A stretch of DNA of 57,354 nt. Source: Candidatus Dormiibacterota bacterium (GTDB taxonomy: Bacteria; Chloroflexota; Dormibacteria; DASZGP01). The translations under genes and the position numbers were made by a program. Positions 20,155 to 47,228 of the stretch are shown piece after piece. How positions within the stretch are numbered: position 1 is the first letter of the stretch; each line of letters starts with the position of its first letter. The stretch spans positions 4,711 through 62,064 of the forward strand of contig DAINSI010000003.1 of NCBI GenBank assembly GCA_036741395.1. Direction: 5' to 3'. Below the pieces are notes generated by a model, which was not told the origin of the DNA, made no database searches, and was given only the letters and a program-made list of their open reading frames with translations.

Positions 20155-23051
20155 CTGCCTGAAGGATGGCTGGCCGGGCGCCGGCGTCGCGGCAACAGGG
20201 CCGCCAGGAGCGCGACCAGGAGCGCGGCAATGGTGAGGGGCCAGCCGTAATTGGCCGTCGACGTCCCCGGCGTGCCCCCGGTGCCGATGCTCGCGGTCCC
20301 CGGCCCGGGCAGCTGTGGCGGGCAGGCCAGCGAAAGGGGCGCGGGCGCCGCCGGGGTCAGGGTGTGCACCACCGGCCCGACCGCGGCGGCCATCCCGGGC
20401 ATCCCCAGCTTGACCTCGCTGACGTGGAGCAGGTGCGCCAGCAGGGCCTGGGACATGTCCTGGTCGACCCCGGGGGTGACCTGCGCCAGCATCTCGTGCG
20501 CCTGTAAAAGCTCCGGCGGCGAGCCGGCAGTCATCACGGGGATGGCGGCGTTGGGGACCTGTCGCGGCTGCAGGGGATACGCCGGCGTCAGGTTGTCGGG
20601 GTTGGAGGTGAAGTAATCGGCCATGCTGGTCGCCGCCAGTTCCTGCACCGAGCTCGGCGACGCGCCCAGCATCAGGTCCATCGTCTTGACCATCGAGTAG
20701 GTGCTGTGGTGCACGTGCGAGATGTAGTTCCTCTTGGCGTAGGGCCCGGCCACCAGCACCAGCGAACGGTTGGCGTCAAGGTGGTCCTCGCCGCCCTGGG
20801 TGTCGTCCTCGACCACGAACACCGCGGTGTCGTGCCACACGGCTGACTTGCTCAGGCCCTCGATGATGCGGCCCAGGGCGTGGTCGTTGGTGGCGACATA
20901 GCTCTCGTCGGTGAGGCTGCCCCCGGTGTGGTCGTTGGGCAGGAGCAGGAAGGAGAACTGCGGCATCGTGAGGTCGGTCCGGGTGCTCAGCTCGTTGACG
21001 TAGTAGTTGGCGCGTTGCTCGTCGGAGAAGGTGGTGGGGCTGGGGATCTGAGTCGGGTAGCCCACGACCGGGTCGATGGGCGCCAGGAAGCTGTTGTACT
21101 GGACCCCGTACGTGGGCGCGCGGACATCGGGCTCGGACGGGTCCGGCGTGACCAGCGCCGGAGTCACAGGCCCGCCCCCGGTGAGGTAGAGGGCCTCGCC
21201 GTAGACCCGCGTCGAGATCCCGGCGCGGAAGTAGTTGGTCCAGATGAAGCCGTTCTGTGGAACGCTCTCCGGCGCGGTGCCCATCAGCTGGGCGCTGCCG
21301 CCGAGGTTGCCGTTCTTGAACGTGGGGTCCAGCTTGAAGTCCCACTCGTTGTCCTGGCCGGTTCCGACCACCCAGTGTCCGCCGACGCTGTCGATAACAA
21401 AGTCATAGAAGTTGTCGCCGGTGCCGTAGCGGCGGGCGATGGCGTGGTGGTTGGGGGTGACCGCGCCCCCGAAGTCGGCCAGGGAGGGATCGCGCTCGGC
21501 CCCGGGCAGATCGCCGAGGATCTGGTCGAAGGTCCGGTTCTCCTTCTCGATGAAGACGACGTGCTTGATCTTCTGCGACGGGCCCTGGCCGAAGGCCGCC
21601 GGCACCACCGAGGTGTCGCCCGTCGCCGCGCCCGCGACCAGGCCGTCGTCATGGGCCACGACCGCGGTGGTGGCCTGGAGGTCGACGCATCCCAGGGGCA
21701 CGTCCTGCAGTGTCCCGCGCTGCAGGTTGGCCGCCACCCGAGCCTCGCTCCCGGGCGGCCCCAGGGTGACCCCGCTGCCCGAGCCATAACCCTTGGCGCT
21801 GGCGATGTAGAGGTGTTGGCCATCGCTGCTGACCTGCACCGCCGAGGGGTACCAGGTGGTGGGGATGTGGCCGTAGATCACCCCGCTGGCGACGTCCACC
21901 GCCGCCACCGCGTTGAGGCCGCCCTCGGCAACGTAGAGGGTGGTGCCGTCGGGAGCCCAGGCCAGGGCGTTGGGCTGCACCCCGGTGGGTCCCTCCTTGG
22001 GTGCGCCCGGGTAGAGCCGCATGTCGATGTTGCGCAACAGCGCGCCGGTGCCGGCGTCAAGCAGGGCCACCAGCTGGTCGTTGGAGCTGGTCACCGCCAG
22101 CGTCTTGCCGTCCGGCGAGAGCGCGATCGATGAGGGCAGGCTGCCGCTGAGGATGCGGAAGCCGTCCAGGTCGCGCCCGATCCGGGTCTTGGCGATCACC
22201 GCGGGGCTGCCGGGGTTGCTCAGGTCGTAGGTCCACACCGAGGACGACTGCGGCGTGTTGTACCCGGTGGGCGGCGGCACATCGACCGGCGGATTGGGGA
22301 TCTGGGTGCCGGGGTTGTCGTTGCCCTGCGGGTTGAACATCCCCCAGTTGGTCACGTAGGCCCGCGTGCCGTCGGGCGAGAGCATGACCCCGTAGGGCCA
22401 TTCGCCGGTGGGCACGCTGGCGACCTGCAATTTCGTGGAGGTGTCGACGACGTCCAGGGTGTCCGAGCGCAGGCCGGCGGCGTAGAGGTAGCGCCCGGCG
22501 GGGTGCAGGGCCAGCCCCCACGGGTAATCCTTCGCGCCCAGGCTGATCTTGCCCGTCCGCGCCAGCGAGCCGGTGTCGAAGATCCCAATCGAGCCCGTGC
22601 CTCCCTCGCTCACGTACAGGCTGCGGCCGTCCAGGGAGTCGACCAGGCCGTAGTTGAGGGCGTCGTCGCGGACGCGGCGCAGCGCCAGCGTGGTCGGGTC
22701 GACGATGGAGAGGTAGCGCTCCCGGGCCTTGTTGTCGGCGAGGTTGTCGTTGACCCCCTCAGACGACAGGAAGAGGTGCCGGTGATCGTGCGACCAGGCC
22801 AGGTTGAGCGGCATCAGGTCGGTGCGCACGGTGTGACCCGCCGGCGTCACGAAGCGGCCGTCGGGGAGGACCGCGGTGCCCTCGCTGCCGATGTGCGCGG
22901 GCAGGTTGCCGGCGGGCGAGGTCATGACCGCGCCGATCGGTGGGGCCAGCGTCACGGCAAGGCGGGCACGCGCGCCGGGCGCGGCCTGGACCGGCGCGAC
23001 CACCAGCGCGAGCCCCAGCGCAATCCCCATCAACAGGTGGCGCAGTTTCAC
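20151..23051 (-). CDS. Secreted YVTN/YncE beta-propeller plus phosphoesterase (alkaline phosphatase fold), C-terminal sorting signal
   Basis: Signal peptide; repeats such as PWGLALHP and PYGVMLSPDG..YVTN; KHVVFIEKENRTFD, DDTQGGEDHLD; GTPGTS-TM-RRRR. Confidence 0.88.
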   Translation of the reverse strand: MKLRHLLMGIALGLALVVAPVQAAPGARARLAVTLAPPIGAVMTSPAGNLPAHIGSEGTAVLPDGRFVTPAGHTVRTDLMPLNLAWSHDHRHLFLSSEGVNDNLADNKARERYLSIVDPTTLALRRVRDDALNYGLVDSLDGRSLYVSEGGTGSIGIFDTGSLARTGKISLGAKDYPWGLALHPAGRYLYAAGLRSDTLDVVDTSTKLQVASVPTGEWPYGVMLSPDGTRAYVTNWGMFNPQGNDNPGTQIPNPPVDVPPPTGYNTPQSSSVWTYDLSNPGSPAVIAKTRIGRDLDGFRILSGSLPSSIALSPDGKTLAVTSSNDQLVALLDAGTGALLRNIDMRLYPGAPKEGPTGVQPNALAWAPDGTTLYVAEGGLNAVAAVDVASGVIYGHIPTTWYPSAVQVSSDGQHLYIASAKGYGSGSGVTLGPPGSEARVAANLQRGTLQDVPLGCVDLQATTAVVAHDDGLVAGAATGDTSVVPAAFGQGPSQKIKHVVFIEKENRTFDQILGDLPGAERDPSLADFGGAVTPNHHAIARRYGTGDNFYDFVIDSVGGHWVVGTGQDNEWDFKLDPTFKNGNLGGSAQLMGTAPESVPQNGFIWTNYFRAGISTRVYGEALYLTGGGPVTPALVTPDPSEPDVRAPTYGVQYNSFLAPIDPVVGYPTQIPSPTTFSDEQRANYYVNELSTRTDLTMPQFSFLLLPNDHTGGSLTDESYVATNDHALGRIIEGLSKSAVWHDTAVFVVEDDTQGGEDHLDANRSLVLVAGPYAKRNYISHVHHSTYSMVKTMDLMLGASPSSVQELAATSMADYFTSNPDNLTPAYPLQPRQVPNAAIPVMTAGSPPELLQAHEMLAQVTPGVDQDMSQALLAHLLHVSEVKLGMPGMAAAVGPVVHTLTPAAPAPLSLACPPQLPGPGTASIGTGGTPGTSTANYGWPLTIAALLVALLAALLPRRRRPASHPSGS

Positions 23052-24226
23052 CCGGCGAGTTCTCGCAGGACCTGCGCCAGGGCGGGCACGAATTGCGCCG
23101 CGTTGTCCCAGTAATCATGTGCCGCAAGGCCGCCTGCCGGGCTGTTGGCCACGTTGTCGATGGGGCGGTCGGCCACGTGGGCCTGGTCCAGGAAGCCGCC
23201 GCCGCGGCGCAGCCGAAACAGGCCTCCCTCGCCGGGTGGGACGGTCGCGTCGGTCAGTGGTCGCCACTCCATTGGGGGCGCGAGGGGGTCGGCAACGGGG
23301 TCGAGCCGGTCCCAGAAGTTGAGCCAGGGCACCTCGCCCACCCCCGCCAGGTCGCGGGTCTGGCCGAAGAAGTCAACGTACTTGCGCAGTGGGCTGCCCG
23401 CGGTGACAAAGGCGCCGATGCGCTGCAGCTGCTGCGTCGATAGCGACTGCAGGGTGTCGAAGCAGACCACGGTGCCGTGGCTGTGGCCGTTGACCACGAC
23501 CGCCGTGACGTCGTCGCGCGCCAGCAGGCGCTGCAGCACCTCGGCGACAAAGTCCAGGACCCGGTCGTGGAGGCGGTGGTCGTAGACGTACGAGGCCACG
23601 TCGTCCTCGAGCTGGACCAGGGTGTCGCCGGCGGTCGCGCCGGGCGGCACGTTCTTGCGGTTCTTGAGGGGGTGGGGGAGCATGCGGCGGTGGGGGATGT
23701 CCTCGCGGATGCGGTTCCCCGGTCCGGGGTCGGCGGCGCTCGGCTTGATCGCGCGCAGGTCCTGGCGCAGCAGCCGCCAGACCGTCAGCGGCGACGCGTA
23801 GTGGCCGAGGTGCAGGAGCGCGGAGAAGAGGGCGCGCAACCCCAGCCAGAGCCGGGGGCGGGTCGACTCCAGGCCCGCGTAGACCACAGCGACGTGCCCG
23901 ATGGCGCTCCCCGGTGCCGCCAGCGGCCGGTCGCTCCAGTCCAGCGAGCCGTCCGGCAGGCGCGCCGCGATGCGGTCCAGGCCCAACTCAATGTCGCCGC
24001 TGCGGGGCGGCCACTCGCTGGATACATACACCGCGCCGGCCTCGCCCGGCGCGTTGCGCTCCCGGCGGGGGTCGTCGCCGAAGAGTGGGCCCAGCACCTT
24101 TCGAAGGTGAAGGTGGAGCGCGTCGGCATACCCGGGCACGTCCGGCTCGTGCGGTGGCTGCTGGAAACCGATGCCGTGCACTGTGAGCAGGCAGACCAGA
24201 CCAGGCTTCGAAGGTGACCCAGGCAT
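23048..24226 (-). CDS. Alpha/beta-hydrolase-like protein
   Basis: VHGIG, GHSHG, FVTAGSPL, NFWDRLDPVA, HDYW; coupled (GTGA) to the phosphoesterase. Confidence 0.7.
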   Translation of the reverse strand: MPGSPSKPGLVCLLTVHGIGFQQPPHEPDVPGYADALHLHLRKVLGPLFGDDPRRERNAPGEAGAVYVSSEWPPRSGDIELGLDRIAARLPDGSLDWSDRPLAAPGSAIGHVAVVYAGLESTRPRLWLGLRALFSALLHLGHYASPLTVWRLLRQDLRAIKPSAADPGPGNRIREDIPHRRMLPHPLKNRKNVPPGATAGDTLVQLEDDVASYVYDHRLHDRVLDFVAEVLQRLLARDDVTAVVVNGHSHGTVVCFDTLQSLSTQQLQRIGAFVTAGSPLRKYVDFFGQTRDLAGVGEVPWLNFWDRLDPVADPLAPPMEWRPLTDATVPPGEGGLFRLRRGGGFLDQAHVADRPIDNVANSPAGGLAAHDYWDNAAQFVPALAQVLRELAG

Positions 24227-24318
24227 GAGCGCGCATTATCCCGCGCCGGGTTCCCAATATGGACGTGCGCCTATACAATGGCGCCGCCGGTCGACTTCGA
24301 CCGGCACCGGAGGAGCAC

Positions 24319-26040: not shown

Positions 26041-26070
26041 CCTAGCCGGCGCGGGTACGCTTACCGCCCC

Positions 26071-27267: not shown

Positions 27268-27271
27268 CGGC

Positions 27272-28870: not shown

Positions 28871-28974
28871 TGGTCACACACCCCGTTGACCCTGCGCGGC
28901 AGGGGTCGGCTTCGATCGGCCTCATTATCGCGCTGTCCACGCAACGTCTCGACGCGGGGCCGAGAATTGGCGCC

Positions 28975-31049: not shown

Positions 31050-31054
31050 GGGCA

Positions 31055-33403
31055 TTACCTCCGCTTGCTGTCCAGACCCCGGGAGCATACGACGGCGATG
31101 AGCGTGGCGAGGGCAGCGACCCAGGTCCACGACCCCCGCACCCGCCCGGTGTTGGGGGTGCCGCCTCCCCCACCGGGGGTGGAGGCAGCGCAGACCCCGC
31201 TACCGACGGTTTGGATGCTCGTGCCTGCCGGCGCGGACACGGACTCTCGGCCCAGGTTGATGGCCAGCGCGTGGTCGGAGTTGACGTGCAGGGTCAGGGT
31301 GCAGTCGTCGCGCAGGCCCATCCTCGCCAGGTCGAGGCTCAGCGCCGAGTCGTTTGTGGTGTTGATGTTGGCCGCGTTGCTCACCCCCACCGCGGGCCCG
31401 AATGCCGGCACCGTTTGAAACAGCTCGCGCAGGGTCCGCGGCAGCATCGTCGGTCCGCCCTCGTCACCGATAACGTCGGTGTGGGCGGCCGACGTCGGGG
31501 TCAGGTTGGCGTGCGCCAGGCCCAGTGACTCGACCACGGTGTCGGCGCGCTTGGCGACATCGGCGGACCGCAGCCCCGATACCCAGTACGCGTGGTCGTA
31601 GACCAGCCCGATCGACGGCACATCGTCGCCGGGGAGCCGGGAATAGATCACCACGGCGGGGTTGGGATTGCGGCGGTGGGCGCCAAAAAAATCGAAGATC
31701 CGCGGCAGCGTGTCGTAGATCGATGAGTACTCGTGGATCTTGGCCTTGTAGTCGACCAGGGTGGCGTCGTAGCCATCCGCGCTGAGGTTGCCGTAGAGCT
31801 TCTTGGCCTGCGCGCCCCCCGTGTCGAGGTCCTCCTCGGCGGTCATCTCCAGCCAGCCCACGTTGCGCAGGTTCTGGTGCAGGTCGATGGAGTCGGTGCC
31901 CTCCGCCGGGGCCACCGCCGCGAAGAGGTCGGGGTTGTGGATGGCGACGTTGTTGCTGCCGTAGCCGCCCATCGAGTGACCCATCAGGTAGACCCGGTTG
32001 GGGTCGACGTCGTAGTGCTTCTCGACGTCGGCGATGACCTCCTTGACGTCGATGTCGCCGGGGCCCTTGTAGCTGTAATCACCGCGCCCCAGCGCGCTCG
32101 CCAGCAGGTACCCGTGCTGGTCGGCGGTGGTGACCAGCCCGATGGGGTTGTAGAAGGGCTCATCGGGCAGGCCCGTGAACCCGTGCAGGTAGACGATCAG
32201 CGGCATCGGCGCGGAGCGCGCCGCGTAGGCCGCGGAAACGTGCATGTAGTACGGCTGAAGCCTGCCGGTGTAGTGGTAGGTGACGTCGAAGTCGGCCAGC
32301 GGCGCCAGGCCCAGGGGTGTGGGTGGCGCGCTTGGTGGCGCGAAGGGCACCAGCCCGGCGCTGCGGTCGATGCCGTCAGCAGCGCCGATGGCGCTGGTGA
32401 AGAAGCGCGACAGGTCGCCGGTGCGCAGCGGGGCGGCCTGGGTCGCGCGCGCCAGCAGCACCGTGGGGTCGACCTGCTGGCTGTCGGTGCTGACGTCGCC
32501 CGCCCGCAGATCGTCGGCCTGCTTCAGCTCGTCGAAGGTCCAGGTGGTGTCGCGGCTGAAAAGCAGGTCCCAGACGTTGGCGCCGGGTGCCAGGGGGGCA
32601 CCGCTTCCTGGTTGGCTGGCGCTCGCATTCCCGGCCGGCACGGCCCAGTACTGGCCCGGCGTGGCCGGGTCGTCGAGGCCGCTGCCCCCGGTCAGCGACC
32701 AGCGTCCGGCGGGCAGGCGGGCAAGCGGGATGCGCGCCTCTAAGGCATGCTCGGCGAGGAGGAACCGGGACGCCCCTCCCGCCGCCTGCAGGGACTGCGA
32801 GCCTGTGCCGGAATCCAGCTGCGCCCCCGTCCCCCAGATGGTCAGGGCGGTCGTCCACGGGCTGCTGATTCCTGCATTGCGCGGCCACGCGCGCGCCGCG
32901 CCCGGCGCCGACGCGGGGGCGAAGGCCAGGGTCGCGACCTGGGCGTCCGACCGTGGCAACGAGGTGAAGCGCATCCGCACAAAGAGGTCGCTGCCCTCGG
33001 TCGCCAGGCGCACCTCGGCGAGGTCGCCGGTGAAGTCGGGCCATCGGGTTTTGTCGGTGGGGAGCTGGTAGTCGCCATTGTGGGTTGATCGGTGGGCGCC
33101 GAAGAAGTCGTAGGTGAGCGCGTTGTAGAGGTCGTTCGGCGGCGAGTAGGTCGGAGCCGACTCGCCAAAGGCGGCGTAGTAATCGCGGCGGTGGAGGCTG
33201 TCGGCATTGGCGCCCAGTGACTGGAAGATCCCGTTGCTGTAGATGAACTCGCCGCGTTCGTAGGTGGCGTCGCGGTACACTCCGGTGGCGGTCCCCGTCC
33301 ACTGGTGCCAGCCTGGAGCCGCGGCCAGGGTCACCGCTGTCCCCAGCGGCCCCAGCGCCAGGCCCATCACCGCCGGCAGCAATATTCGGCGGGCACCCAG
33401 CAC
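31055..33403 (-). CDS. Secreted alpha/beta hydrolase (esterase/depolymerase-like) with N-terminal DOMON-like region and sorting signal
   Basis: Signal peptide, VYLHG, RVYLMGHSMGGYG, D...HEY; GTPNTG-TM-KRR; leaderless TAGGCT-6nt-GTG. Confidence 0.82.
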   Translation of the reverse strand: MLGARRILLPAVMGLALGPLGTAVTLAAAPGWHQWTGTATGVYRDATYERGEFIYSNGIFQSLGANADSLHRRDYYAAFGESAPTYSPPNDLYNALTYDFFGAHRSTHNGDYQLPTDKTRWPDFTGDLAEVRLATEGSDLFVRMRFTSLPRSDAQVATLAFAPASAPGAARAWPRNAGISSPWTTALTIWGTGAQLDSGTGSQSLQAAGGASRFLLAEHALEARIPLARLPAGRWSLTGGSGLDDPATPGQYWAVPAGNASASQPGSGAPLAPGANVWDLLFSRDTTWTFDELKQADDLRAGDVSTDSQQVDPTVLLARATQAAPLRTGDLSRFFTSAIGAADGIDRSAGLVPFAPPSAPPTPLGLAPLADFDVTYHYTGRLQPYYMHVSAAYAARSAPMPLIVYLHGFTGLPDEPFYNPIGLVTTADQHGYLLASALGRGDYSYKGPGDIDVKEVIADVEKHYDVDPNRVYLMGHSMGGYGSNNVAIHNPDLFAAVAPAEGTDSIDLHQNLRNVGWLEMTAEEDLDTGGAQAKKLYGNLSADGYDATLVDYKAKIHEYSSIYDTLPRIFDFFGAHRRNPNPAVVIYSRLPGDDVPSIGLVYDHAYWVSGLRSADVAKRADTVVESLGLAHANLTPTSAAHTDVIGDEGGPTMLPRTLRELFQTVPAFGPAVGVSNAANINTTNDSALSLDLARMGLRDDCTLTLHVNSDHALAINLGRESVSAPAGTSIQTVGSGVCAASTPGGGGGTPNTGRVRGSWTWVAALATLIAVVCSRGLDSKRR

Positions 33404-33499: not shown

Positions 33500-33544
33500 A
33501 AGCAGGCCCGGTTGAAACAGGCCCGGTTGAAACAGGCCCGGTTT
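33500..33544 (+). repeat. 3 x 15-bp tandem repeat overlapping a sigma70-type -35 box
   Basis: AAGCAGGCCCGGTTG / AAACAGGCCCGGTTG / AAACAGGCCCGGTTT; TTGACG(33543)-17bp-TACTCT(33566). Confidence 0.85.
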
Positions 33545-33580: not shown

Positions 33581-36500
33581 TTGCATCGTACGCAGGAGGG
33601 GGCAGGGAGACGAGCCGTGGTGGCGGCGTTGCTTGGCTGTGCCGCCGCGCTGGTTTCCCCGCTGGCCACCCTGGCCGATGCGCCGTGGCCCTCGTCCTCC
33701 GGGCAGCCCGACAAATACGCATACCAGGACTACCTGCGCGCCACGCCACCCATCGACTGCAGCGCCGCCATCACCCACGCGCCCAACGACTTCGACTGCG
33801 ACGACTGGCACGTCAGCAGCAAGGTCGACCCCCAGGCGGGCCTACCGCCAATGTCCGCCCAGGAGCTGGGCGGCGTGATGGGCGGCAGCGTCGACAAGTC
33901 CTTCAACGTCAGCACCGGCCGGCCCGACATCCACATCGCGGTCCTGGACTCCGGGATCATCTGGAACGACCAGGGCAAGATGAACGACCTGCGCAACAAG
34001 GTGTGGCTGAACTGGGCCGAGCTGCCGCCGCCGGAGCGTGCCGATCGCAGCCTCTTCCCCGGCTGCGACCCGGCCCTGCTGCCGCCCCGCAACCAGAAGC
34101 TGGCGTCACCGGGATTCCCCACCGCCGCGCGGGGCTTCACCGACTGCTACGACGTCGACCACAGCGGGATGTTCAACGTCAGCGACTACTCGCAGGACCC
34201 GCGGGTCAACCTGCCCGCCCACGGCCACTTCTGCTGCGGCAGCACCACCCCCGCCAACAACCTGCTCACCCCTGAGGACCTGATCGAGGTCTTCTCCTGC
34301 TACGACGCGACGCTGCCCGCCGGCCAGCAGGTGGGGCGCTTCACCGGCGTCGACAGCCAGGGCCGGCGGGTGTGCAGCAACAGCACCGACAACGTCGACA
34401 ACGACGGCAACGGGTTCCCTCACGACATCGCCGGTTGGAACTTCATGGAGCGCACCAACGACCCCTATGACGAGCCCCACTACGGCCACGGCAGCGGCGA
34501 GGCGCGCGACTCCAACGCCGAGGCCAACAACGGGGGCGACATCGGCACCTGTCCCAGCTGCATGGTCCTGCCGCTGAAGGTCGGTGACTCCTTCATCGCC
34601 GACGTCAACGAGTTCAACCAGGCCGTGATGTACGGCGTCGACAACCAGGTCAACATCATCCAGTCGGCGCTGGGCACGCTGAACAGCGCCGATCTCACGC
34701 AGGCGTCGATCGACTACGCGTACCGCAACGGCGTCACGTTTGTCGCCAGCGCGGCCGACGAGGCGGCCGGTCACCACAACCAGCCAGGCGCCACCGAGAA
34801 CCACGCAATCGTCGTCAACTCGGTGCGCAAGAACGAGGTCGACAGCTCCCAGGTGCCCCTGAACAACAGCTTCCCGGGTCCCAACAACGTGGGCCGCACC
34901 TATCTGCTGCTCAACGGCTGCACCAACTACGGCGCGCACATCATCGCCGCGGTGGAGAGCTCGTCATGCAGCTCGGAGGCGGTGGGCAAGGAGTCGGGGT
35001 CGGTCGGGCTGATCTACTCGGTCGCTCGCAACCTCGTCAAGAAGGGCCTGCTGCAGCAGTACGCGCCGCCCACAGCGCTGCACCCGGACGGCGTCGACAT
35101 CTCGCCGGAGGAGGTCAAGCAGGTGGTCCTGGCGTCCGCCGACAACATCGACTTCGAGGACCCCAGGCCGCCCGTGGGACGCGGTGACAGTCCTGCCGAC
35201 GCCACCTCGCCCTGCACTGAGGTCACCACGGACCCCGCCGGGCTCCCCAACAACTACGGCACCACCAACGCGGGCGAGCGATACCGCTCGATCGGCGGGT
35301 GGAGCCAGTACTTCGGTTACGGCCGCGCCAACGCCAACTGCCAGCTGCGTACCGTCCTCAGCGGGCGCATCCCACCCGAGGCGACGATCGAGACGCCGGC
35401 CTGGTTCGAGAACCTCGACACGACCGAGCCGAGCTTTAGCGTCACCGGCCGGGTGGCGGCGTCGCGGGTCCCCGGCGGGCGCTACCGGTACGCGGTCCAG
35501 GTGGCCTACGGCGTGCAGCCCCACGAGGCCGACTTCCACGCCATCGACATCCCCGCGACGCACCCCGGCGTCCAGACCGGGCCGATCAGCGGAACGCTGG
35601 CGACGCTGACCAGGGCCCAGCTCGACCAGGCCTTCGCGAACTACAACCCGGTGACCTACCCGCACCCACTGGCCAATCCCAACGGCGACCAGACCGACTG
35701 GTCCAACCCGGCGAGCCCCTACAGCGCCGCGCCGGGCAAGAACCAATGGGACCAGTACACCTTCACCCTGCGGCTGCAGGTGACCGCGGTGGATGCGCAG
35801 GGCAAGGCGATCCCGGGCCTGCACATCGGCGAGGACCGCAAGTCGTTGCAGCACCACCACGACGACAGCGTCGGCGCCAATGGCACCGCCGTCCCCGGCT
35901 TCCCCAAGAAGTACAACAGCGACGGTGGCAGCGAGCCGGTGCTGGCGGACCTCTTGGGTGACAACCAGAACGAGCTGATCTTCGGCAGCTCAACGGGCCT
36001 GATCCACGCGCTGCGGTCGGACGGCACCGAGCTGCCGGGCTGGCCGGTGCACACCACGCCCCTGTGCAGCAGCGCGCTTCCTGACAGCACCACCTGTCCG
36101 TCCCGAGAACGCGAGCCGGCGTTCAGGGACCCGATCCTGGGCCCGGTGGCGGCCAATAGCTACGCCGCCGTCCTGCGCACCGTGGCGGTCGGTGACCTCG
36201 ATCGCACCGGCCGGCTGCAGGTGGTCGCGTCGGACAACGCCGGCTACGTGTATGTCTACGAGGTGTCGGCGGCATACTGCGCCGGCATCGGCAAGACCGC
36301 CCCGTGCGTTCGGCCCAACTTCCCCGTGCACGTCGACTTCAGGTACTCGCGCCAGGGCGTCCCGGGGGCCTTCAACCGCGACGTGGACAACCGGGTCCAG
36401 TTCGGGTTCTTCGCGTCGCCCACCATCGCCGACCTGAACGGCGACGGCAAGCTGGAGATCGTTGTCGGGTCGCTGGACCGCCACGTCTACGTGTGGCGTC

Positions 36501-38281
36501 CCGACGGGTCGCGGCAGCCGGGCTTCCCGTTGCTGCTGGCCTCGCCGGAGAAGGTCGCCAGCATTGACGCCGGGACGCACCGGGTCCACCTGAAGCCGAA
36601 CTCCGGCGCCTTCTACGGCAGCAAGATCGTCAGCTCGCCGTCGGTGGGGGACCTCCTCGGGGATGGCCACAGGGAGATCGTGCTGGGGCGCAACGAGGAG
36701 TACAGCCTGGCGTCGGACGGCGGCTACAACGCCTCGGCGGACAGCGGCGGCCTGCTCTCGCCGGTGCTGTCGCAGGTCGCCAACGAGGCCAACGGCCGGG
36801 CGTACGCGGTGTTCAGCGACGGCTACTGCCACGCCAGGACCAGCTGCCCGACCGAGCCGCCCGACCTCGTCGCCACCAACGCCTACGTCCCGGGCTGGCC
36901 GGTCAAGGTGGGTATCTTCCAGGCCGAGATCCTGCCCACAGTCGGGTCGGGCGTCGACACCCCGCCGGCGCTGATCTCGATGACCTGCCCGCAGAACAGC
37001 AGCAACGGCCTCAAGGTGGGCCTCGCGGCCAGCAACGGCCCGGCGTATGTGTTCGGCAGCGACGGCAAGTCCTGCTACGGCCAGGGGCTGGGAGTGGACG
37101 GCAAGATGCACGACCGCACCATGGGCGGCAACGGGCAGATCGGCGGCAACACCACCGACCCGCTGGCCGCGGCGGCGTTCGGCCAGGTGGTCTTCGGCGA
37201 CCTGACCGGCAACGGCGACCTGGTGCTGGTCACCGCGACGGTGGGGGCGGTGAAGGCGGTCGATGTGATCGTGGCCGCCCACCAGCTGGGCGCCCAGAAC
37301 CACATCACCGCGTGGAGCCTGAGCAGCGTCCCGCCGGCGTGCGCGGGCGCGGCCTGCGCGCCGCCGCTGCACGTGGGCTACCCGCATTACATGAACGACC
37401 TCCAGTTCCTCTCCGGACCGGCGATCGCGGACATCACCGGTGACGGCACCCAGGCGATCCTCCAGGGCAGCGCCACCACCGACCTGCGGGGGATCGACCA
37501 CAACGGCAACGAGGTCCCGGGGTGGAACAAGAACACTGGCGACTGGACCGTCGACGTGCCGGTCGTGGGGACGTTCGGGACGGCGATGAACAAGCGCGTG
37601 GCGTCCCTGACGCGCAATGGCAAGCTCTTCGTCTGGAACACCACCGCGGGTGCGTGCGCACCGGCGTCGTGGCCCAAGGCGCGGCACGACAACTGGAACA
37701 GTGGCGAGTACGAGACCAAAGCCGGCCGGCCCTCGACGGTGTCGGACCTGGGCGGGACGCGCCACGGGGGCTCGGTCCAGCTGACCTTCACCGCGCCCCA
37801 CGGTGACCTCTTCTGTGGCAATGCCCAGGGTTACGAATTCCGCTACTCGACCACGGGGCCGATCACCGATGCCAACTGGAGCCAGGCCAGCCTGGTCGGG
37901 GGCTCGTCGGTGACCCTGTCAGGGGTCGCGGGCAGCGCGGGCGCCGGCACGGCCTGCAAGGCGCAGGTGGCGGCGTTTGACGGCATCCCGGCCAACGGCC
38001 CGGTCTGGGTCGCGGTGCAGGGCGTCAACGACGCGACCCGCAAGGGTGGCAACCTGGGCGCGATCAGCAACGTCGCCTACTTCCCCGCCCCCCGCAGCAC
38101 CGCCACCGTGCCTGGCGCAACCGCGGTCAACGACGCCTGTCTGCGTTCGGGAGGGATGCCCAACACCTCGCGGGCGGGATATGTTCTCGACCTGACGGCG
38201 ATGCTGGTCCCGGTCGCCCTGGCGGCCGCCCTGCGCAGGAGGGGAAGGACCAGACCGCCAGGGGTTAGCCGGCGCGTCTGA
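33581..38281 (+). CDS. Large secreted S8 (subtilisin-like) peptidase with FG-GAP-like repeats and sorting signal
   Basis: IAVLDSG, GHGSGEA, atypical SCSSEA serine region, DNVDNDGNG, DLNGDGKLEIVVG-type repeats, GMPNTS-TM-RRR. Start TTG 33581 or GTG 33617; ORF-track start 33305 overlaps the divergent gene. Confidence 0.85.
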   Translation: MHRTQEGAGRRAVVAALLGCAAALVSPLATLADAPWPSSSGQPDKYAYQDYLRATPPIDCSAAITHAPNDFDCDDWHVSSKVDPQAGLPPMSAQELGGVMGGSVDKSFNVSTGRPDIHIAVLDSGIIWNDQGKMNDLRNKVWLNWAELPPPERADRSLFPGCDPALLPPRNQKLASPGFPTAARGFTDCYDVDHSGMFNVSDYSQDPRVNLPAHGHFCCGSTTPANNLLTPEDLIEVFSCYDATLPAGQQVGRFTGVDSQGRRVCSNSTDNVDNDGNGFPHDIAGWNFMERTNDPYDEPHYGHGSGEARDSNAEANNGGDIGTCPSCMVLPLKVGDSFIADVNEFNQAVMYGVDNQVNIIQSALGTLNSADLTQASIDYAYRNGVTFVASAADEAAGHHNQPGATENHAIVVNSVRKNEVDSSQVPLNNSFPGPNNVGRTYLLLNGCTNYGAHIIAAVESSSCSSEAVGKESGSVGLIYSVARNLVKKGLLQQYAPPTALHPDGVDISPEEVKQVVLASADNIDFEDPRPPVGRGDSPADATSPCTEVTTDPAGLPNNYGTTNAGERYRSIGGWSQYFGYGRANANCQLRTVLSGRIPPEATIETPAWFENLDTTEPSFSVTGRVAASRVPGGRYRYAVQVAYGVQPHEADFHAIDIPATHPGVQTGPISGTLATLTRAQLDQAFANYNPVTYPHPLANPNGDQTDWSNPASPYSAAPGKNQWDQYTFTLRLQVTAVDAQGKAIPGLHIGEDRKSLQHHHDDSVGANGTAVPGFPKKYNSDGGSEPVLADLLGDNQNELIFGSSTGLIHALRSDGTELPGWPVHTTPLCSSALPDSTTCPSREREPAFRDPILGPVAANSYAAVLRTVAVGDLDRTGRLQVVASDNAGYVYVYEVSAAYCAGIGKTAPCVRPNFPVHVDFRYSRQGVPGAFNRDVDNRVQFGFFASPTIADLNGDGKLEIVVGSLDRHVYVWRPDGSRQPGFPLLLASPEKVASIDAGTHRVHLKPNSGAFYGSKIVSSPSVGDLLGDGHREIVLGRNEEYSLASDGGYNASADSGGLLSPVLSQVANEANGRAYAVFSDGYCHARTSCPTEPPDLVATNAYVPGWPVKVGIFQAEILPTVGSGVDTPPALISMTCPQNSSNGLKVGLAASNGPAYVFGSDGKSCYGQGLGVDGKMHDRTMGGNGQIGGNTTDPLAAAAFGQVVFGDLTGNGDLVLVTATVGAVKAVDVIVAAHQLGAQNHITAWSLSSVPPACAGAACAPPLHVGYPHYMNDLQFLSGPAIADITGDGTQAILQGSATTDLRGIDHNGNEVPGWNKNTGDWTVDVPVVGTFGTAMNKRVASLTRNGKLFVWNTTAGACAPASWPKARHDNWNSGEYETKAGRPSTVSDLGGTRHGGSVQLTFTAPHGDLFCGNAQGYEFRYSTTGPITDANWSQASLVGGSSVTLSGVAGSAGAGTACKAQVAAFDGIPANGPVWVAVQGVNDATRKGGNLGAISNVAYFPAPRSTATVPGATAVNDACLRSGGMPNTSRAGYVLDLTAMLVPVALAAALRRRGRTRPPGVSRRV

Positions 38282-38345
38282 CCTTCGCGGTGCGGCTCCT
38301 CTCGGCTCAGCCGGGATCCACCGGATCCGGGCTTACCATCTGGGC

Positions 38346-39673: not shown

Positions 39674-39675
39674 CT

Positions 39676-41628: not shown

Positions 41629-42120
41629 CTAGTGGCCCCTGAGGTGGCGCAGGCGGGCCTGGGTCACCTCCTTCTCGGCGCGGGCGCGCCCCGACCAGCC
41701 CTCGACATGGCTGAACTTGTCGGGATCGAGGTCCTTGTAGATCGAGAAGAAGTGCTCGATCTCGTTGAGCAGCTCCCTGGGGACTGCGGTGATGTCGTCC
41801 CAGTCCCGGGGGTCGAAGGTGGGGATCGCCAGCACCTTGGCGTCCAGGCCCTTCTGGTCGTGGGTGCGCAACACGCCGATGGCGCGGCAGCGGATCCGAC
41901 AGCCGGGGAAGGTGGGCTCGTCGACCAGCACCAGCACGTCCAGGGGGTCGCCGTCGCCGCCGAGCGTCTCAGGTACGAATCCATAGTCGGCCGGATAGCG
42001 AACCGAGCTGTACAGGGGGCGATCCAACCTGATGTGCCCGGTGGCGAGGTCCATCTCGTACTTATTGCGGCTCCCCTTGGGTACCTCCACCACGACATCG
42101 AACTCCAGCGTATCGGCCAT
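41629..42120 (-). CDS. ppa: Inorganic pyrophosphatase (family I)
   Basis: EVPKGSRNKYE, YPADYGF, DGDPLD, EIEHFFSIYKDL. Confidence 0.95.
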   Translation of the reverse strand: MADTLEFDVVVEVPKGSRNKYEMDLATGHIRLDRPLYSSVRYPADYGFVPETLGGDGDPLDVLVLVDEPTFPGCRIRCRAIGVLRTHDQKGLDAKVLAIPTFDPRDWDDITAVPRELLNEIEHFFSIYKDLDPDKFSHVEGWSGRARAEKEVTQARLRHLRGH

Positions 42121-42172
42121 CCCGCCATGTTCTCAGATGAACGGTATGCTGGGCGATCGTTCAGGAGGCCGC

Positions 42173-42547
42173 ATGACAACGTATTCCGACTTCAACTCAC
42201 AGCAGCCGCGTCAGATCTGGGACGGCATCCAGGGCCGGGTGATCACCGGCGAGCGGATGACCATGGCGCTGGTGGACCTGGAGCCGAACATCCAGCTGCA
42301 AGAGCACCATCACACAAACGAGCAGATGGGCTTTTTGATCCAGGGGCAGATGACCTTCACCATCGGCGGCGAGACCCGCCAGCTGAACCCGGGCGACACC
42401 TACAACATCCCGTCCAACGTCCCCCACCATGCGAGCACCGGTCCAAAGGGGTGCGTGGTGATCGACGTCTTCTCGCCGGTGCGTGAGGACTGGGAGAAGC
42501 TGCAGCGCAAGGATCCCAGCCCGAGCAACTGGCATATGGGCGGCTGA
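42173..42547 (+). CDS. Cupin domain protein
   Basis: EHHHTNEQMG...G, IPSNVPHHA, DVFSPVRED; AGGAGG RBS and TATGCT -10. Confidence 0.88.
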   Translation: MTTYSDFNSQQPRQIWDGIQGRVITGERMTMALVDLEPNIQLQEHHHTNEQMGFLIQGQMTFTIGGETRQLNPGDTYNIPSNVPHHASTGPKGCVVIDVFSPVREDWEKLQRKDPSPSNWHMGG

Positions 42548-42650
42548 TCCAGCCGGCGCGCCGAGGCGAACTGGAATCAGGACCACCTGGTGGGGGTTTA
42601 ATGATCATGGCAGCGCCGCGGTGGCGGCACCAGGCACAGTGAGAGGACAC

Positions 42651-43178
42651 ATGAGCGAGAAGGCCACGTTTGCGGCAGGTTGTTTCTGGGGCGTGGAGGC
42701 GGAGTTCCGCCAGATGCCCGGCGTCGTCGGCACCCGGGTCGGGTACATCGGCGGTGCTGGCGACAACCCCACCTACGGCGACGTCTGCAGCCACACCACG
42801 GGTCACGCCGAGGCCGTCGAGGTGGAGTTCAACCAGGGCGAGACCACCTATGAGGACCTCACCCGCAAGTTCTTCAGCCTCCACGACCCCACCCAGCTCA
42901 ACCGCCAGGGCCCCGACGTCGGCGACCAGTACCGATCCGGGGTCTTCTACCACTCGCCGGAGCAGAAGGCGGTGGCGGAGAGGATCAAGGCCGAGGAAGC
43001 GCCCCGGCACCGCAAGCCGGTGGTCACCGAGGTGACGGAGGCGGCGCGGTTCTGGGAGGCCGAGGACTACCACCAGCGCTACCTGGAGAAGCGTGGCCTC
43101 TCCAGCTGCAGCATCCCCGGCCAGGAGGTCGCCCCCGCGATGCCCGGCTGGATCCGCAAGGCATTGGGCGGCCACTAG
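42651..43178 (+). CDS. msrA: Peptide-methionine (S)-S-oxide reductase
   Basis: FAAGCFWGVE, GHAEAV, HDPTQLNRQGPDVGDQYRS, AEDYHQRY. Confidence 0.96.
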   Translation: MSEKATFAAGCFWGVEAEFRQMPGVVGTRVGYIGGAGDNPTYGDVCSHTTGHAEAVEVEFNQGETTYEDLTRKFFSLHDPTQLNRQGPDVGDQYRSGVFYHSPEQKAVAERIKAEEAPRHRKPVVTEVTEAARFWEAEDYHQRYLEKRGLSSCSIPGQEVAPAMPGWIRKALGGH

Positions 43179-43225
43179 CCTCTCACCCGGCCCCGGGGCG
43201 GGGTGCCCCCCGTACCATTGATCCC

Positions 43226-44542
43226 ATGAGCGAGGCGACGGGGGCCAGGCAAGCTCCCGCACGCACGGTGCGCTGGGAGTCCGTGCCCCAGCCCATCCGT
43301 GTCCTCGTCTACCTGCTGATCGCCCTGGTCTCCCTGCAGGTCTATCACCAGGAGCAGCTGATCTTCTCGCACATCTTCAGCGTGGCGCTGCTGTTCGTGT
43401 TTGCGGCGATCATCGCGCTGCTGCTGACCCCCCTCATCGACCGTCTCGAGCACACCGGGCTGATGCACGGTCGTCGAGGACTCTCCGTCCTGGTCGTCAA
43501 CCTCGGCCTGGTGCTGGTGATCGGCGGCGGGATCGCGCTGCTGGTGCCGCTGGTCGGTCAGCAGCTCAGCGATTTCAGGGACGAGGGACCGCGTCTCTAC
43601 GGTCGGGTGACCGCGTTCCTCAGCACCTTCCAGACCGACTTTCAGCGCTTCGGGATCAACCTGGACCTGCGCGGTGGGGGCACCTCGGCGATCGGCAGCC
43701 AGCTCTTCAACAACGCCTTCCACGCCCTGCAGAGCGCGATCAGCGCCGTCATCAACATCCTCCTGATCGCGGTGATCTCGATCTACCTCGAATCGCAGGG
43801 CCGGGAGCTGGTGGCCGCGGTCCGCCGCCTCTTCCACGCTCACCAGGAGCAGGTCGACTTCTTCTTCGTGGCCACCGGCAGCACGGTGCTGGCCTATGTG
43901 CGAGGCCAGCTGATCATGGCGCTGGTGATGGGGATCTACACCGGGCTGGCGCTCACGGTGATCGGTGTGCACTACGCCTTCGTGATCGGCATCGCGGTCT
44001 TCTTCCTGGAGTTCCTGCCGCTGATCGGGGCCCCCGTGGGGATGGCGCTGGGGGTCATCTTCGCCCTCATCCAGAGCCCTTTCCTCGGCCTCCTGGCGGC
44101 GGTGATCGGGGTCGGCGGCCACGCCATCGAGGCCTACATCATCGGCCCCCGGGTTACCGGCAACGCCACCCGCCTGCACCCCCTCGCCGCGATGGCGGCG
44201 CTGCTCATCGGCGCCGATGTCGGCGGCGTCCTGGGCGCGCTCTTCGCGGTTCCGATCGCGGGTGTCGTCAATGTCTACCTGGGTGCGCTCTACAAGTCCA
44301 GTCGCGGCCACGAGGACGCATTCGCCCTGCCCGAGCACCGCGATGCGACCATCGAGGACCTGCCCCGGCTGGGTGAGGAGATCTCCGAGGTCAAGGAGGA
44401 GGGCATGGAGGCCGAGCCGATTCCGCGGGCGCTCGCCGACCACGAGCCGCGCCGTCGAACCTCGGCCAAGCCTGGGGCGAAGCAGAGGACCGCCAAGACG
44501 GGTGCCGCCGGGACAGCCGCTCGGACCTCAAAATCGAGCTAG
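43226..44542 (+). CDS. AI-2E (PerM/UPF0118) family transporter
   Basis: Multi-TM; YVRGQL, EFLPLIG, EAYIIGPRV, LHPL, GALFAVP. Confidence 0.9.
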   Translation: MSEATGARQAPARTVRWESVPQPIRVLVYLLIALVSLQVYHQEQLIFSHIFSVALLFVFAAIIALLLTPLIDRLEHTGLMHGRRGLSVLVVNLGLVLVIGGGIALLVPLVGQQLSDFRDEGPRLYGRVTAFLSTFQTDFQRFGINLDLRGGGTSAIGSQLFNNAFHALQSAISAVINILLIAVISIYLESQGRELVAAVRRLFHAHQEQVDFFFVATGSTVLAYVRGQLIMALVMGIYTGLALTVIGVHYAFVIGIAVFFLEFLPLIGAPVGMALGVIFALIQSPFLGLLAAVIGVGGHAIEAYIIGPRVTGNATRLHPLAAMAALLIGADVGGVLGALFAVPIAGVVNVYLGALYKSSRGHEDAFALPEHRDATIEDLPRLGEEISEVKEEGMEAEPIPRALADHEPRRRTSAKPGAKQRTAKTGAAGTAARTSKSS

Positions 44543-44567
44543 CGACGCAGTGCGGTAGTCTCCCCCG

Positions 44568-47228
44568 ATGGCGGGGTTCGGGAGGGGGGACGATCCGAGT
44601 CGGCAGCCCGGTGGGCCGAGGCTGAGCGGCCGCGCCCGACGCCTGTCGCTGGCGCTGGCGTTTGCGGCGCTGGTGGCGACGCTCCTGCCTGCCACGGCCG
44701 TGCCGGCGCTGGGTTCCAGCCCCCTCAGCGCGACCATCCGCTGGACCTCGCACGGGATCCCGCACATCCTCGCCAAGGACTTCGCCGGCCTGGGCTACGG
44801 CTACGGTTATGCCTTCGCGTCGCAGGACATCTGCGTCATCGCCGACCAGTACGTCACCGTCGACGGCCAGCGGTCGCGGTACTTCGGGCCGACCGGGTCC
44901 TGGGTTTTTGAGGGCAACGGCTTCAGCGCCAACAACCTCAACAGCGACTTCTTCTTTCAGCAGATCGTCGATGACGGACGCATTGAGAAACTGATCGCCG
45001 TGCCGCCCCCCCTGGGGCCGCGCCAGGAGATCAAGGACGGCGTCCGTGGGTATGCCGCCGGTTACAACCGCTACCTCGCCGACACCGGCGTCGGGGGTAT
45101 CACCGACCCCGCCTGCTCGGGCAAGCCGTGGGTCCACCCCATCACCGAGATCGAGGTCTATCGACGCTTCTACGAGCTGGCGCTGCTGGCCAGCTCGGCC
45201 GTGGCGATCGACGGCATCGGCAGTGGGGCGCCGTCGTGCCCCGGGACGGCGGTGGTACCCAGCGTGTTCGCGGCGCAGATGAAGAGCAAGTTTGACCTCG
45301 GGATCGGCAGCAACGCCGTCGCCCTGGGCAGCGACGCCACCCAGAACGGGCATGGCATGCTGCTGGGCAACCCCCATTTCCCGTGGCACGGCTCGGAGCG
45401 CTTCTTCCAGGCGCAGATGACCATTCCCGGGGTGGTCAACGTCAGCGGCGGCAGCCTCTTCGGGGTGCCGATCGTGCTCATCGGGCATACCGACTCGATG
45501 GCCTGGAGCCACACCGTCTCGACCGCGTACCGGTTCACGCCGTACCAGTTGGCGGTGGCGCCGGGCGAGACCTCCTACTTCGTTGACGGTGGGGTTGAAG
45601 CCATGACCAAGCGCACCATGACCGTCCAGGTGCAGCAGCCGGACGGGTCCCTGCAGCCGCAGTCGCGCACGCTCTACCGCACCCGCTGGGGACCCATGCT
45701 CACCAGCCTGGTTGGCCTTCCGCTGCCCTGGTGCCACGGCGTCGGCTTCGCCATGGCAGATGCCAACGAGGGGAACTTCCGCTACGTCAACCATTTCCTC
45801 GAGACCGACCTCGCCCACTCCAGCCAGGAGGAGCTGCAGGTGCTCGAGCGCAACCAGGGCGTCCCCTGGGTCAACACCCTGGTCTCCGACAACACCGGGC
45901 AGGCGCTCTACGCGGACATCTCGGTGGTGCCCAATGTCCCGGATTCGATGACCGCCGAGAGCGTCTGCGGCACGCCGCTGGGGACGGCCACGATCCAACT
46001 CCTGGGCTTACCCGTGCTGGATGGCTCGAAGTCCGCCTGTGCCTGGCGCACCGACCCCGACGCCGTCGCCCCCGGGATATTCGGACCATCGCACCTGCCC
46101 CATCTCTTCCGCACCGACTACACCGAGAACTCCAACGACAGCTACTGGCTGGCCAACCCCCGACAACGGCTGGAGGGGTTCGCCCGCATCATCGGCGACC
46201 AGCGCACCGCCCGGGCGCTTCGAACCCGCCTGGGACTGACCATGCTGGAGGAGTTCATCTACGGCCACAATGGCAAACCCATATCCAAGTTCACGCCACA
46301 GCAGTTGATGGACATGGTCTTCAACGACCGCCAGTACGGCGGTGAGCTGGCGCAGACGGCCGCGGCCGATATGTGCGATGCCTTCGGTGGGACGGCGCCA
46401 ACGGCGAGTGGGACCGTGGCGGTGGACAACGCCTGCACCGTGATCCGGAATTGGGACCGCACCGAGAACCTCAACAGCAAGGGCGCCGTGCTCTGGCGCG
46501 AATTCTGGACCGCCGCCCTCAAGGTCAACGGGGGGGCCTGGTCGACCCCGTTCAACGATGGAGACCCGGCGCACACGCCCAACAACCCTGCTCAGCCGCT
46601 GGCGCCGGTCGATACCCCCAACACCCTCGACACCTCCAACGACCCGATGGGCACGCAGGTCAAGAAGGCGTTCGGTGACGCCGTCAAGCGACTCAAGGAC
46701 GACCAGATTCCCCTCGACGCGACGCTGGGGTCCAACCCGGTCATAGGGCCGCTACAGTTCGCGCAGCGCGGCGCCACCCGCATCCCCATTCACGGCGGCC
46801 CCGGCACCCCCGGCACCTTCAACGCCATCAACGAGCGCGGTGGCCTGCTGGGCAAGGCCAACGGCTACGGCGACGTCCCCCACGGTTCCAGCTTCGTCCA
46901 GGTGGTCTCGTTCAACGGCACCCCATGCCCCGATACCCACACCATCCTGACCTACTCGCAGTCCACCAATCCGAACTCGCCGTACTACGCGGACCAGACC
47001 CAGATGTTCAGCAACAAGCAGTGGGTTACCGACGAGTTCTGCGAGAGCCAGATCCTCGCCGATCCCAACCTCACCGTGACCTCCATCAGCGATGCCGCCC
47101 CGGCGGTGACCGCGGTGCCGGCCGGGATGCCCAACACCGCCGCCTCGCTGCCGGCCGCAGCCCTGTTCGCGTTGGCACTTGTCGCCGTCGCCGGCCTGTC
47201 GGTGGTCGCCCGGCGCAGTCGCGCTTAG
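44568..47228 (+). CDS. Penicillin acylase family Ntn-hydrolase (AHL/aculeacin acylase-like) with sorting signal
   Basis: WTSHGIPHI, GYGYA, G|SNAVA nucleophile site, LLGNPHFPW, NSNDSYWL, LTYSQS; GMPNTA-TM-RR; leaderless TAGTCT-6nt-ATG. Confidence 0.9.
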   Translation: MAGFGRGDDPSRQPGGPRLSGRARRLSLALAFAALVATLLPATAVPALGSSPLSATIRWTSHGIPHILAKDFAGLGYGYGYAFASQDICVIADQYVTVDGQRSRYFGPTGSWVFEGNGFSANNLNSDFFFQQIVDDGRIEKLIAVPPPLGPRQEIKDGVRGYAAGYNRYLADTGVGGITDPACSGKPWVHPITEIEVYRRFYELALLASSAVAIDGIGSGAPSCPGTAVVPSVFAAQMKSKFDLGIGSNAVALGSDATQNGHGMLLGNPHFPWHGSERFFQAQMTIPGVVNVSGGSLFGVPIVLIGHTDSMAWSHTVSTAYRFTPYQLAVAPGETSYFVDGGVEAMTKRTMTVQVQQPDGSLQPQSRTLYRTRWGPMLTSLVGLPLPWCHGVGFAMADANEGNFRYVNHFLETDLAHSSQEELQVLERNQGVPWVNTLVSDNTGQALYADISVVPNVPDSMTAESVCGTPLGTATIQLLGLPVLDGSKSACAWRTDPDAVAPGIFGPSHLPHLFRTDYTENSNDSYWLANPRQRLEGFARIIGDQRTARALRTRLGLTMLEEFIYGHNGKPISKFTPQQLMDMVFNDRQYGGELAQTAAADMCDAFGGTAPTASGTVAVDNACTVIRNWDRTENLNSKGAVLWREFWTAALKVNGGAWSTPFNDGDPAHTPNNPAQPLAPVDTPNTLDTSNDPMGTQVKKAFGDAVKRLKDDQIPLDATLGSNPVIGPLQFAQRGATRIPIHGGPGTPGTFNAINERGGLLGKANGYGDVPHGSSFVQVVSFNGTPCPDTHTILTYSQSTNPNSPYYADQTQMFSNKQWVTDEFCESQILADPNLTVTSISDAAPAVTAVPAGMPNTAASLPAAALFALALVAVAGLSVVARRSRA

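Follow-up and report, generated by a model that had tools for sequence, protein, structure and literature searches.

The window analysed here is a 57,354-nucleotide stretch (57 kb, ~69% G+C) of contig DAINSI010000003.1 from a Candidatus Dormiibacterota assembly. It encodes four unrelated secreted hydrolases with similar C-terminal tails, and a sortase-like protein that lacks the catalytic arginine. The closest relatives of the window proteins come from metagenome-assembled genomes (MAGs) labelled Candidatus Dormibacteria, Dormibacteraeota or Chloroflexota. Dormibacteria abound in nutrient-poor soils but have not been cultured, and to our knowledge nothing is known about their cell surface. A first-pass annotation had proposed that the four tails carry a distinct, non-canonical sorting signal and that this signal is paired with the sortase-like gene. 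Genes in the window were placed by the bias in G+C content at third codon positions (GC3) and by Pfam and NCBIfam scans.

Four secreted hydrolases with tripartite C-termini

Two of the four genes lie on the reverse strand, a secreted phosphoesterase (PF04185) with an N-terminal beta-propeller (20151..23051, 966 aa) and a secreted alpha/beta hydrolase that resembles esterases and polyhydroxyalkanoate (PHA) depolymerases (31055..33403, 782 aa). The forward strand encodes a large secreted protein that is subtilisin-like (S8-like) and contains FG-GAP repeats (33581..38281), and a secreted Ntn-hydrolase acylase of the penicillin amidase/PvdQ/AHL-acylase family (44568..47228, 886 aa). The enzyme labels given earlier held for the phosphoesterase, the alpha/beta hydrolase and the acylase, the last with a penicillin-amidase/PvdQ-like match at E 3e-114. 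The label S8 protease also stands, although the likeness of the N-terminal part to subtilisins is weak and distant (E 5e-6, phmmer against PDB subtilisins) and Pfam gave no S8 match for this protein. Signal-peptide-like N-termini, with basic residues, a hydrophobic run and an Ala-rich end, were recognised by eye in all four proteins.

The open reading frame (ORF) of the S8-like gene opens at 33305, but its first 90-odd codons are probably untranslated, and the real start is probably the TTG at 33581 or the GTG at 33617. The beginning of the protein (33617-33650) reads as a signal peptide with LLGC, a possible lipobox; lipid modification of the N-terminus may occur in addition to the C-terminal sorting signal. 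Between this gene and the divergently transcribed alpha/beta-hydrolase gene lies an intergenic perfect 15-bp tandem repeat, CAGGCCCGGTTGAAA (2.7 copies, 33503-33543), which appears as LKQAR repeats when it is read in the spurious N-terminal extension of the ORF.

The C-terminal motifs are TPGTS in the phosphoesterase (20259-20273, reverse strand), TPNTG in the alpha/beta hydrolase (31145-31159, reverse strand), MPNTS in the S8-like protein (38156-38170, forward strand) and MPNTA in the acylase (47127-47141, forward strand). When the translations were re-read, all four stood where they had been reported, each preceded by Gly and followed by 3-8 residues, a hydrophobic stretch of about 17-20 residues and a basic end (PRRRR.., SRGLDSKRR, RRRGRTR.. 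and ARRSRA). In order, the tails read GG-TPGTS, TANYG, WPLTIAALLVALLAALL, PRRRRPASHPSGS for the phosphoesterase; GGGGG-TPNTG, RVRGSWT, WVAALATLIAVVC, SRGLDSKRR for the alpha/beta hydrolase; SGG-MPNTS, RAGYVLDLTAMLVPVALAAAL, RRRGRTRPPGVSRRV for the S8-like protein; and AG-MPNTA, ASLPAAALFALALVAVAGLSVV, ARRSRA for the acylase. All four thus carry an x-P-x-T-x pentapeptide within the range of 17-45 residues from the C-terminus that is expected of LPXTG-type signals (here 28-36), a hydrophobic segment and a positively charged end. A strict Kyte-Doolittle/basic-tail filter passed three of them; the S8-like tail, which has one Asp inside the helix, was picked up by a looser filter. The canonical combination of Leu at the first (P1) and Gly at the fifth (P5) motif position is absent, with P1 reading T, T, M, M and P5 reading S, G, S, A. 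The description of tripartite, LPXTG-like tails that mark unrelated secreted hydrolases was therefore confirmed.

A six-frame translation of the window contains exactly four matches to G[TM]P[NG]T[SGA], all 28-36 residues ahead of a stop codon and each in a high-GC3 gene. Second-order Markov shuffles produced 0.12 matches on average and never more than 2, for a pattern that had been defined after the four copies were seen. Chance was rejected as the origin of the motifs, with an HMM of foreign tails (below) serving as an independent test.

Related tails across the lineage

Relatives were found by joining the last 250 residues of each protein into a query and reading the ends of the matches; the first such search yielded only relatives of the alpha/beta hydrolase and the phosphoesterase. 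At the position of the window motif, orthologues of the alpha/beta hydrolase carry LPNTG, LPNTA, MPNTS, MPNTA, TPNTG, TPNTA, LPGTT and LPNTY. Sixteen of them are of the Dormibacteria type and read LPNTG, LPNTA, MPNTS, TPNTG or LPGTT, and with their flanks the motifs appear as GGGLPNTG, GGGLPNTA, GGGMPNTS, GGGTPNTG and GLPGTT. Acylase orthologues have LPNTG, LPNTS, LPNTA, LPNTT, LPNTR, TPNTS, TPNSS, TPTTS, MPNTS, LPNSS, LPNSG, LPATG and LPPTG, and phosphoesterase orthologues MPNTS, LPDTA and LPFTA, with GGGMPNTS at the equivalent place in the orthologue P0022 (73% identity). A relative of the C-terminal domain of the S8-like protein (P0118) ends in GALPNTAG, a transmembrane segment and RKR.

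We compiled 46 tails, curated by hand and by eye with Pro required at P2 and a few relatives that have a tail without the motif (P0107, P0119) left out. In this set the position before the motif is Gly in 23; P1 is Leu in 31, Thr in 8 and Met in 7; P3 is Asn in 34 and Gly in 4; P4 is Thr in 41 and Ser in 5; and P5 is Ala in 15, Ser in 12, Gly in 12 and Thr in 4, with Tyr, Arg and Asp once each. Among orthologues of 46-75% identity in three protein families, Pro-Asn-Thr is kept and the surrounding tail drifts. Since the pentapeptide stays recognisable where its flanks vary, recognition by an enzyme is favoured over a plain membrane anchor.

On a 2.14 Mb contig from JGI, LPNTA, MPNTS, TPNTG, LPPTG and LPKAG all lie within ~45 kb of an orthologue of the window sortase. 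Five forms occur side by side in this relative, and a single cell must therefore handle all of them. The claim of a distinct signal was not borne out, as L, M and T interchange at P1 both among orthologues and within one genome. Because orthologues read LPNTG, LPNTA, LPNTS, MPNTS, TPNTG or LPGTT in the same position, the window motif is not a separate signal but the T/M end of an LPXTG-type signal that is degenerate and spread across the lineage and can be written as [L>T~M]-P-N-[T>S]-[A~S~G].

Two proteins of the JGI relative (L023) depart from the rule. One (6164-7897, reverse strand; 577 aa, without a Pfam match) has LPKAG, in which Ala replaces Thr at P4, followed by a normal helix and an RSRRS end. 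The other, an 807-aa esterase (10781-13204, forward strand), has LPDTS followed by a shortened tail that lacks a basic end.

Outside this group the ends differ. In more distant homologues of the alpha/beta hydrolase, several of which belong to MAGs assigned to Frankiales or Mycobacteriales, the tails read LAATGG, LASTG or LPATGG and are of the class E type; the tail has therefore been exchanged to suit the sortase of the host. Most acylase relatives outside the Dormibacteria-type group, among the matches listed, have no tail. Judged from these ends, the tail behaves as a swappable module. PEP-CTERM-like ends, VPETP or VPEVA followed by a helix and RRRR, occur in two proteins remotely homologous to the C-terminal domain of the S8-like protein (P0127, P0130), and in those lineages this cargo domain is coupled to another sorting system.

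Comparison with sorting-signal models

A hidden Markov model (HMM) of the tails was trained on 39 tails from other genomes only, with the window proteins excluded. Among 4,951 ORF tails it recovered all four window proteins (acylase 29.0 bits, alpha/beta hydrolase 25.1, phosphoesterase 24.0, S8-like protein 21.4), and none of the remaining window ORFs scored above 6 bits.

Curated models behaved differently. With TIGR01167 (LPXTG_anchor, cut-off 15.9 bits), two window tails scored 14.1 and 13.3 and the other two gave no match, whereas 3 of 10 orthologous or neighbouring tails of relatives passed (P0036 19.4, P0118 20.7 and L004 20.2 bits). The possibility raised earlier, that existing models together with a canonical sortase already capture the motif, is thus half correct, as TIGR01167 recognises some orthologues but not the window tails. 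No window tail reached a curated cut-off in the NCBIfam sorting-domain models, and Pfam and NCBIfam scans of the bare window tails gave sub-threshold matches only. NF058571 (GVDTG_CTERM, cut-off 29) gave 16.5 bits for the phosphoesterase tail, 7.7 for a second tail and nothing for the others; PEP-CTERM and GlyGly-CTERM models had no match on the window tails at E up to 10, and faint traces of MYXO-CTERM and VPLPA-CTERM appeared at E 0.8-5. PEP-CTERM, GlyGly-CTERM and GVDTG-CTERM were rejected as identities of the tails on these scores.

By residues and by model score the window tails fall outside strict LPXTG membership, but they share its architecture and are homologous to tails with canonical motifs, as seen from the orthologues with LPNTG or LPNTA in the same position and from the HMM of foreign tails. 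The tail family is continuous with LPXTG, yet current models miss its window members.

A sortase-like protein without the catalytic arginine

The candidate processing enzyme is a membrane-anchored protein of 277 aa encoded on the forward strand (16133..16966). A hydrophobic anchor lies at its N-terminus, the catalytic core spans about residues 95-220, and the C-terminal tail is rich in Pro. It passes the Pfam Sortase model (PF04203) narrowly, with 28.6 bits against a cut-off of 26.6. The AlphaFold (AF2) model of the core is confident (predicted local distance difference test, pLDDT, ~90), and the first 50 Foldseek matches listed against the PDB were all sortases (probability 1.0, TM-target up to 0.68). 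The ORF thus has a true sortase fold. NCBIfam models of sortase classes A-F gave no class match at E up to 10; the only NCBIfam sortase match was TIGR01076, at 11.9 bits against a cut-off of 39.35.

In an alignment of 19 family members, His145 (VGHNPGVF) and Cys203 (ATCAEPDSSAYWIF; ATCAEPDSSAYW) are invariant, and both align to the His and Cys of SrtA in a TLxTC-like arrangement. The catalytic Arg expected 7-13 residues after the Cys is missing from ATC-AEPDSSAYWIFIA. Profile alignment to solved SrtA structures in the PDB places the SrtA Arg opposite Tyr211, paralogues reading ..GSxDRILDA place theirs opposite Trp212, and under either alignment no Arg occurs within 14 residues after the Cys. 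The sortase-like gene without a catalytic Arg reported from the first reading is therefore real, with the fold and the His/Cys pair present and Tyr-Trp in the Arg position.

The wider 'GHNPGVF' family is a small one, with 350 clusters (E <= 1e-3) in a set of 1.84 billion representatives. Among 109 members with readable motifs, the equivalent site holds Arg in 52 and neither Arg nor Lys, mostly Trp, in 57. Two further Cys residues of the family are invariant, C118 (in YxDCxG) and C134, which suggests that they form a disulfide. The stretch that encodes the Pro-rich tail (16602-16966) is shared, in a different frame, with the beginning of ORF 16602-17819 (DUF4388/PatA_N). Two related loci (L003 and L005) show the same overlap, and the true start of the second ORF probably lies later.

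Genomic context

A region of ~45 kb is syntenic with the JGI contig, where Tad pilus genes are followed by the sortase orthologue, the MPNTS and LPNTA phosphoesterases, UvrD, the TPNTG hydrolase, the LPKAG protein and the LPPTG acylase. A conserved island of the sortase and four substrates was borne out only in part: housekeeping genes lie between them, and the hydrolases are partly missing in two related loci (L001 and L002). We read the arrangement as shared synteny, not as an operon or island.

The pairing of the tails with the Arg-less sortase, proposed in the first-pass annotation, gained support from context. Weightier than the synteny is the arrangement in a sister subclade, where the Arg-less sortase gene and a gene for an LPNTG-tailed GH3 beta-glycosidase are convergent, with their 3' ends touching, on three contigs (L004 9695-13033, the same as L027; L024 1928-5117; L025 28-3164). 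A phosphoesterase with TPNTG is encoded 3 kb away from the sortase in L003. A simple-rule scan of the flanks at 18 genome loci found few tails; the HMM scan was more sensitive. With the HMM, tail-bearing ORFs had a density of 6.2 per 100 kb in the surroundings of the Arg-less sortase type, as against 0.41 per 100 kb for the paralogous type, a contrast of ~15x (binomial p ~1e-6) drawn from loci that are not independent and with an HMM that may miss other dialects. These data are consistent with the Arg-less sortase acting on the tails, and the pairing itself stays presumptive.

The contig scan found one type of the 'GHNPGVF' family per MAG; the sole MAG with two loci is BP_627, whose second copy (L007) is of the same type and apparently frameshifted. 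No canonical sortase was found in the genome contigs, which were scanned with family-specific peptide patterns that are blind to other sortase classes. The window ORFs scanned contain no exosortase, rhombosortase or archaeosortase gene.

Proposed mechanism and alternatives

Taken together, the four tails are probably LPXTG-class cell-wall-sorting signals in a Dormibacteria form, for which we propose a sortase mechanism. This form begins with Gly-Gly and the pentapeptide [Leu/Thr/Met]-Pro-Asn-Thr-[Ala/Ser/Gly], after which come a short spacer, a hydrophobic stretch of 15-20 residues and an Arg-rich end. Each hydrolase would be exported via its N-terminal signal peptide, and the precursor would be held in the membrane by the hydrophobic segment and the basic end. 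A membrane-anchored, sortase-fold cysteine transpeptidase would then cut after the Thr and hand the enzyme to an acceptor in the cell envelope, most likely a peptidoglycan precursor, in what we presume to be a monoderm peptidoglycan envelope. Exoenzymes that cleave phosphoester, ester, peptide and amide bonds, and in relatives glycosides, would stay on the cell and not diffuse away. The most likely processing enzyme would be the divergent 'GHNPGVF' sortase at 16133-16966, with His and Cys kept and Tyr-Trp in place of Arg. A bolder proposal, that this protein is the sole active housekeeping sortase of Dormibacteria and itself processes [L/T/M]PNT[A/S/G] without a catalytic Arg, is in our view less likely than not. 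If it is true, the protein is a natural His-Cys sortase without the canonical Arg, and relaxed recognition of P1 and P5 may be a consequence.

Several observations weigh against the sorting-signal interpretation or its assignment to this sortase. With Arg missing from its His-Cys-Arg triad, the candidate sortase may have no activity or a different function. Our coverage of the source genome is the 57 kb window, and a canonical sortase could lie elsewhere in that genome. Two loci (L001 and L002) have the sortase orthologue without a tail-bearing gene within 10 kb, and the clustering seen elsewhere is largely shared synteny with intervening housekeeping genes, so that the loci are not independent. 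The 46 tails are a hand-curated set selected for Pro at P2, and the window tails lie below every curated cut-off. The literature searched places Dormibacteria beside Chloroflexota among Terrabacteria and documents neither their envelope type nor their peptidoglycan chemistry. That search returned nothing relevant on Dormibacteria together with sortases, on MPNT motifs, on Arg-less sortases or on the Dormibacteria envelope.

Some of these points would suit an arrangement in which the tails are real sortase signals, but are processed by a canonical Arg-containing sortase encoded elsewhere, the Arg-less neighbour being a pseudo-enzyme or serving another task. The missing Arg in the window family, the partial coverage of the genome and the sortase orthologues without nearby substrates all agree with it, as do the 52 of 109 members of the wider family that keep Arg and thus place Arg-containing relatives in related organisms. 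We nevertheless regard it as unlikely, though a serious competitor. A decaying pseudo-enzyme would hardly show the strong conservation of the Arg-less type, whose His and Cys are invariant; this type also directly adjoins LPNTG-tailed GH3 genes on three contigs, and one family type per MAG was found, by patterns specific to the family that miss other classes. A second alternative regards the tails as ordinary membrane anchors at the C-terminus that escape cleavage, with the pentapeptide left over as a relic. It is improbable, because a relic should decay and Pro-Asn-Thr has been kept in three families while its flanks drifted; the spacing from motif to helix and the basic end also match those of sortase substrates. 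In its favour are the scores of the window tails below the LPXTG cut-off, the very relaxed P5 and the few relatives that have a tail without the motif.

We consider it very improbable that the tails belong to a non-sortase system, be it exosortase/PEP-CTERM, rhombosortase/GlyGly-CTERM or the new GVDTG-CTERM class. The GVDTG score of 16.5 bits, which is one reason to think of such a system, is far under its cut-off, and the Gly-Gly ahead of the motif and the PEP-CTERM-like ends of remote homologues of the S8-like C-terminal domain have to be set against the absence of PEP-CTERM and GlyGly-CTERM matches, the absence of the corresponding enzymes among the window ORFs scanned, and orthologous tails that read canonical LPNTG and pass the LPXTG model.

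Relation to known sorting systems

The sorting signals proposed here resemble those of the LPXTG/Staphylococcus aureus SrtA system (TIGR01167) in a signal-peptide-like N-terminus (here judged by eye), Pro at P2, Thr at P4, a distance of 28-36 residues from the C-terminus, the hydrophobic segment, the basic end and a nearby gene with a sortase fold, and orthologous LPNTG tails pass TIGR01167. They differ in Thr or Met at P1 in the window, in the dominance of Asn at P3, in a P5 that across the lineage is Ala, Ser or Gly about equally rather than Gly, in window scores below the model cut-off and in a candidate enzyme without the catalytic Arg.

By analogy, the closest functional parallels are the class D signals LPNTA/LPDT[SA] and the (S/P)PXTG signals of Clostridioides difficile SrtB. 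In Bacillus subtilis, SrtD (YhcS) anchors the phosphoesterases YhcR (LPDTS) and YfkN (LPDTA) (PMC3222306), and the SrtD signal of B. anthracis is LPNTA, as cited in the same paper; LPXTA carbohydrases are reported for B. cellulosilyticus (PMC3617157). Class D systems share with the window Asn or Asp at P3, Ala or Ser at P5 and an enzyme cargo that includes nucleotide phosphoesterases, and a substrate gene adjoins the sortase gene (PMC3222306). They are unlike it in keeping Leu at P1 and in phylum (here Dormibacteria, next to Chloroflexota), and the window sortase matches no NCBIfam class model. C. difficile SrtB recognises (S/P)PXTG signals on cargo that includes cell-wall hydrolases and a 5'-nucleotidase/phosphoesterase (PMC4155245). 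It is likewise a housekeeping sortase with a non-Leu P1 and hydrolase and phosphoesterase cargo, but belongs to the established class B, has Ser or Pro at P1 where Leu, Thr or Met occur here, and keeps Gly at P5.

Likeness to the class E LAXTG signals of Actinobacteria is limited to the LAATGG, LASTG and LPATGG ends found at the same position in distant alpha/beta-hydrolase homologues; class E has Ala at P2 and strict Gly at P5, whereas Pro at P2 is invariant here, though it was a selection criterion. GVDTG-CTERM (NF058571) resembles the window tails in having a G-x-x-T-G-like motif with a helix and then a basic end behind it, but its motif residues differ and three of the four window tails have no match above noise.

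The LPXTG-type kind of signal is thus already known, and the neighbouring sortase without a catalytic arginine is more unusual. Our findings provide a usable rule for surface-displayed proteins of Dormibacteria, GG-[LTM]-P-N-T-[ASG] followed by a helix and an Arg-rich end; current annotation models miss many such tails, including all four in the window. Scavenging exoenzymes (phosphoesterases, esterases, acylases, proteases and glycosidases) seem to dominate what is displayed on the surface, which fits the retention of costly enzymes on the cell in oligotrophic soil. The tails are also concrete candidate substrates for the Arg-less sortase family, and with them the question of Arg-free sortase activity becomes testable.

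Neighbouring features

A stretch of lower G+C content (0.64) at 5800-15200 resembles a mobile or defence island. It contains an IS481-like helix-turn-helix fragment (8258-8935), an AbiEi-like regulator (9235-10326), an archaeo-eukaryotic primase (AEP)-helicase of a TOTE system (11234-13678) and a DUF234 ATPase (13712-15154). Upstream of the sortase in the JGI relative (L019), this position is taken by the Tad pilus genes.

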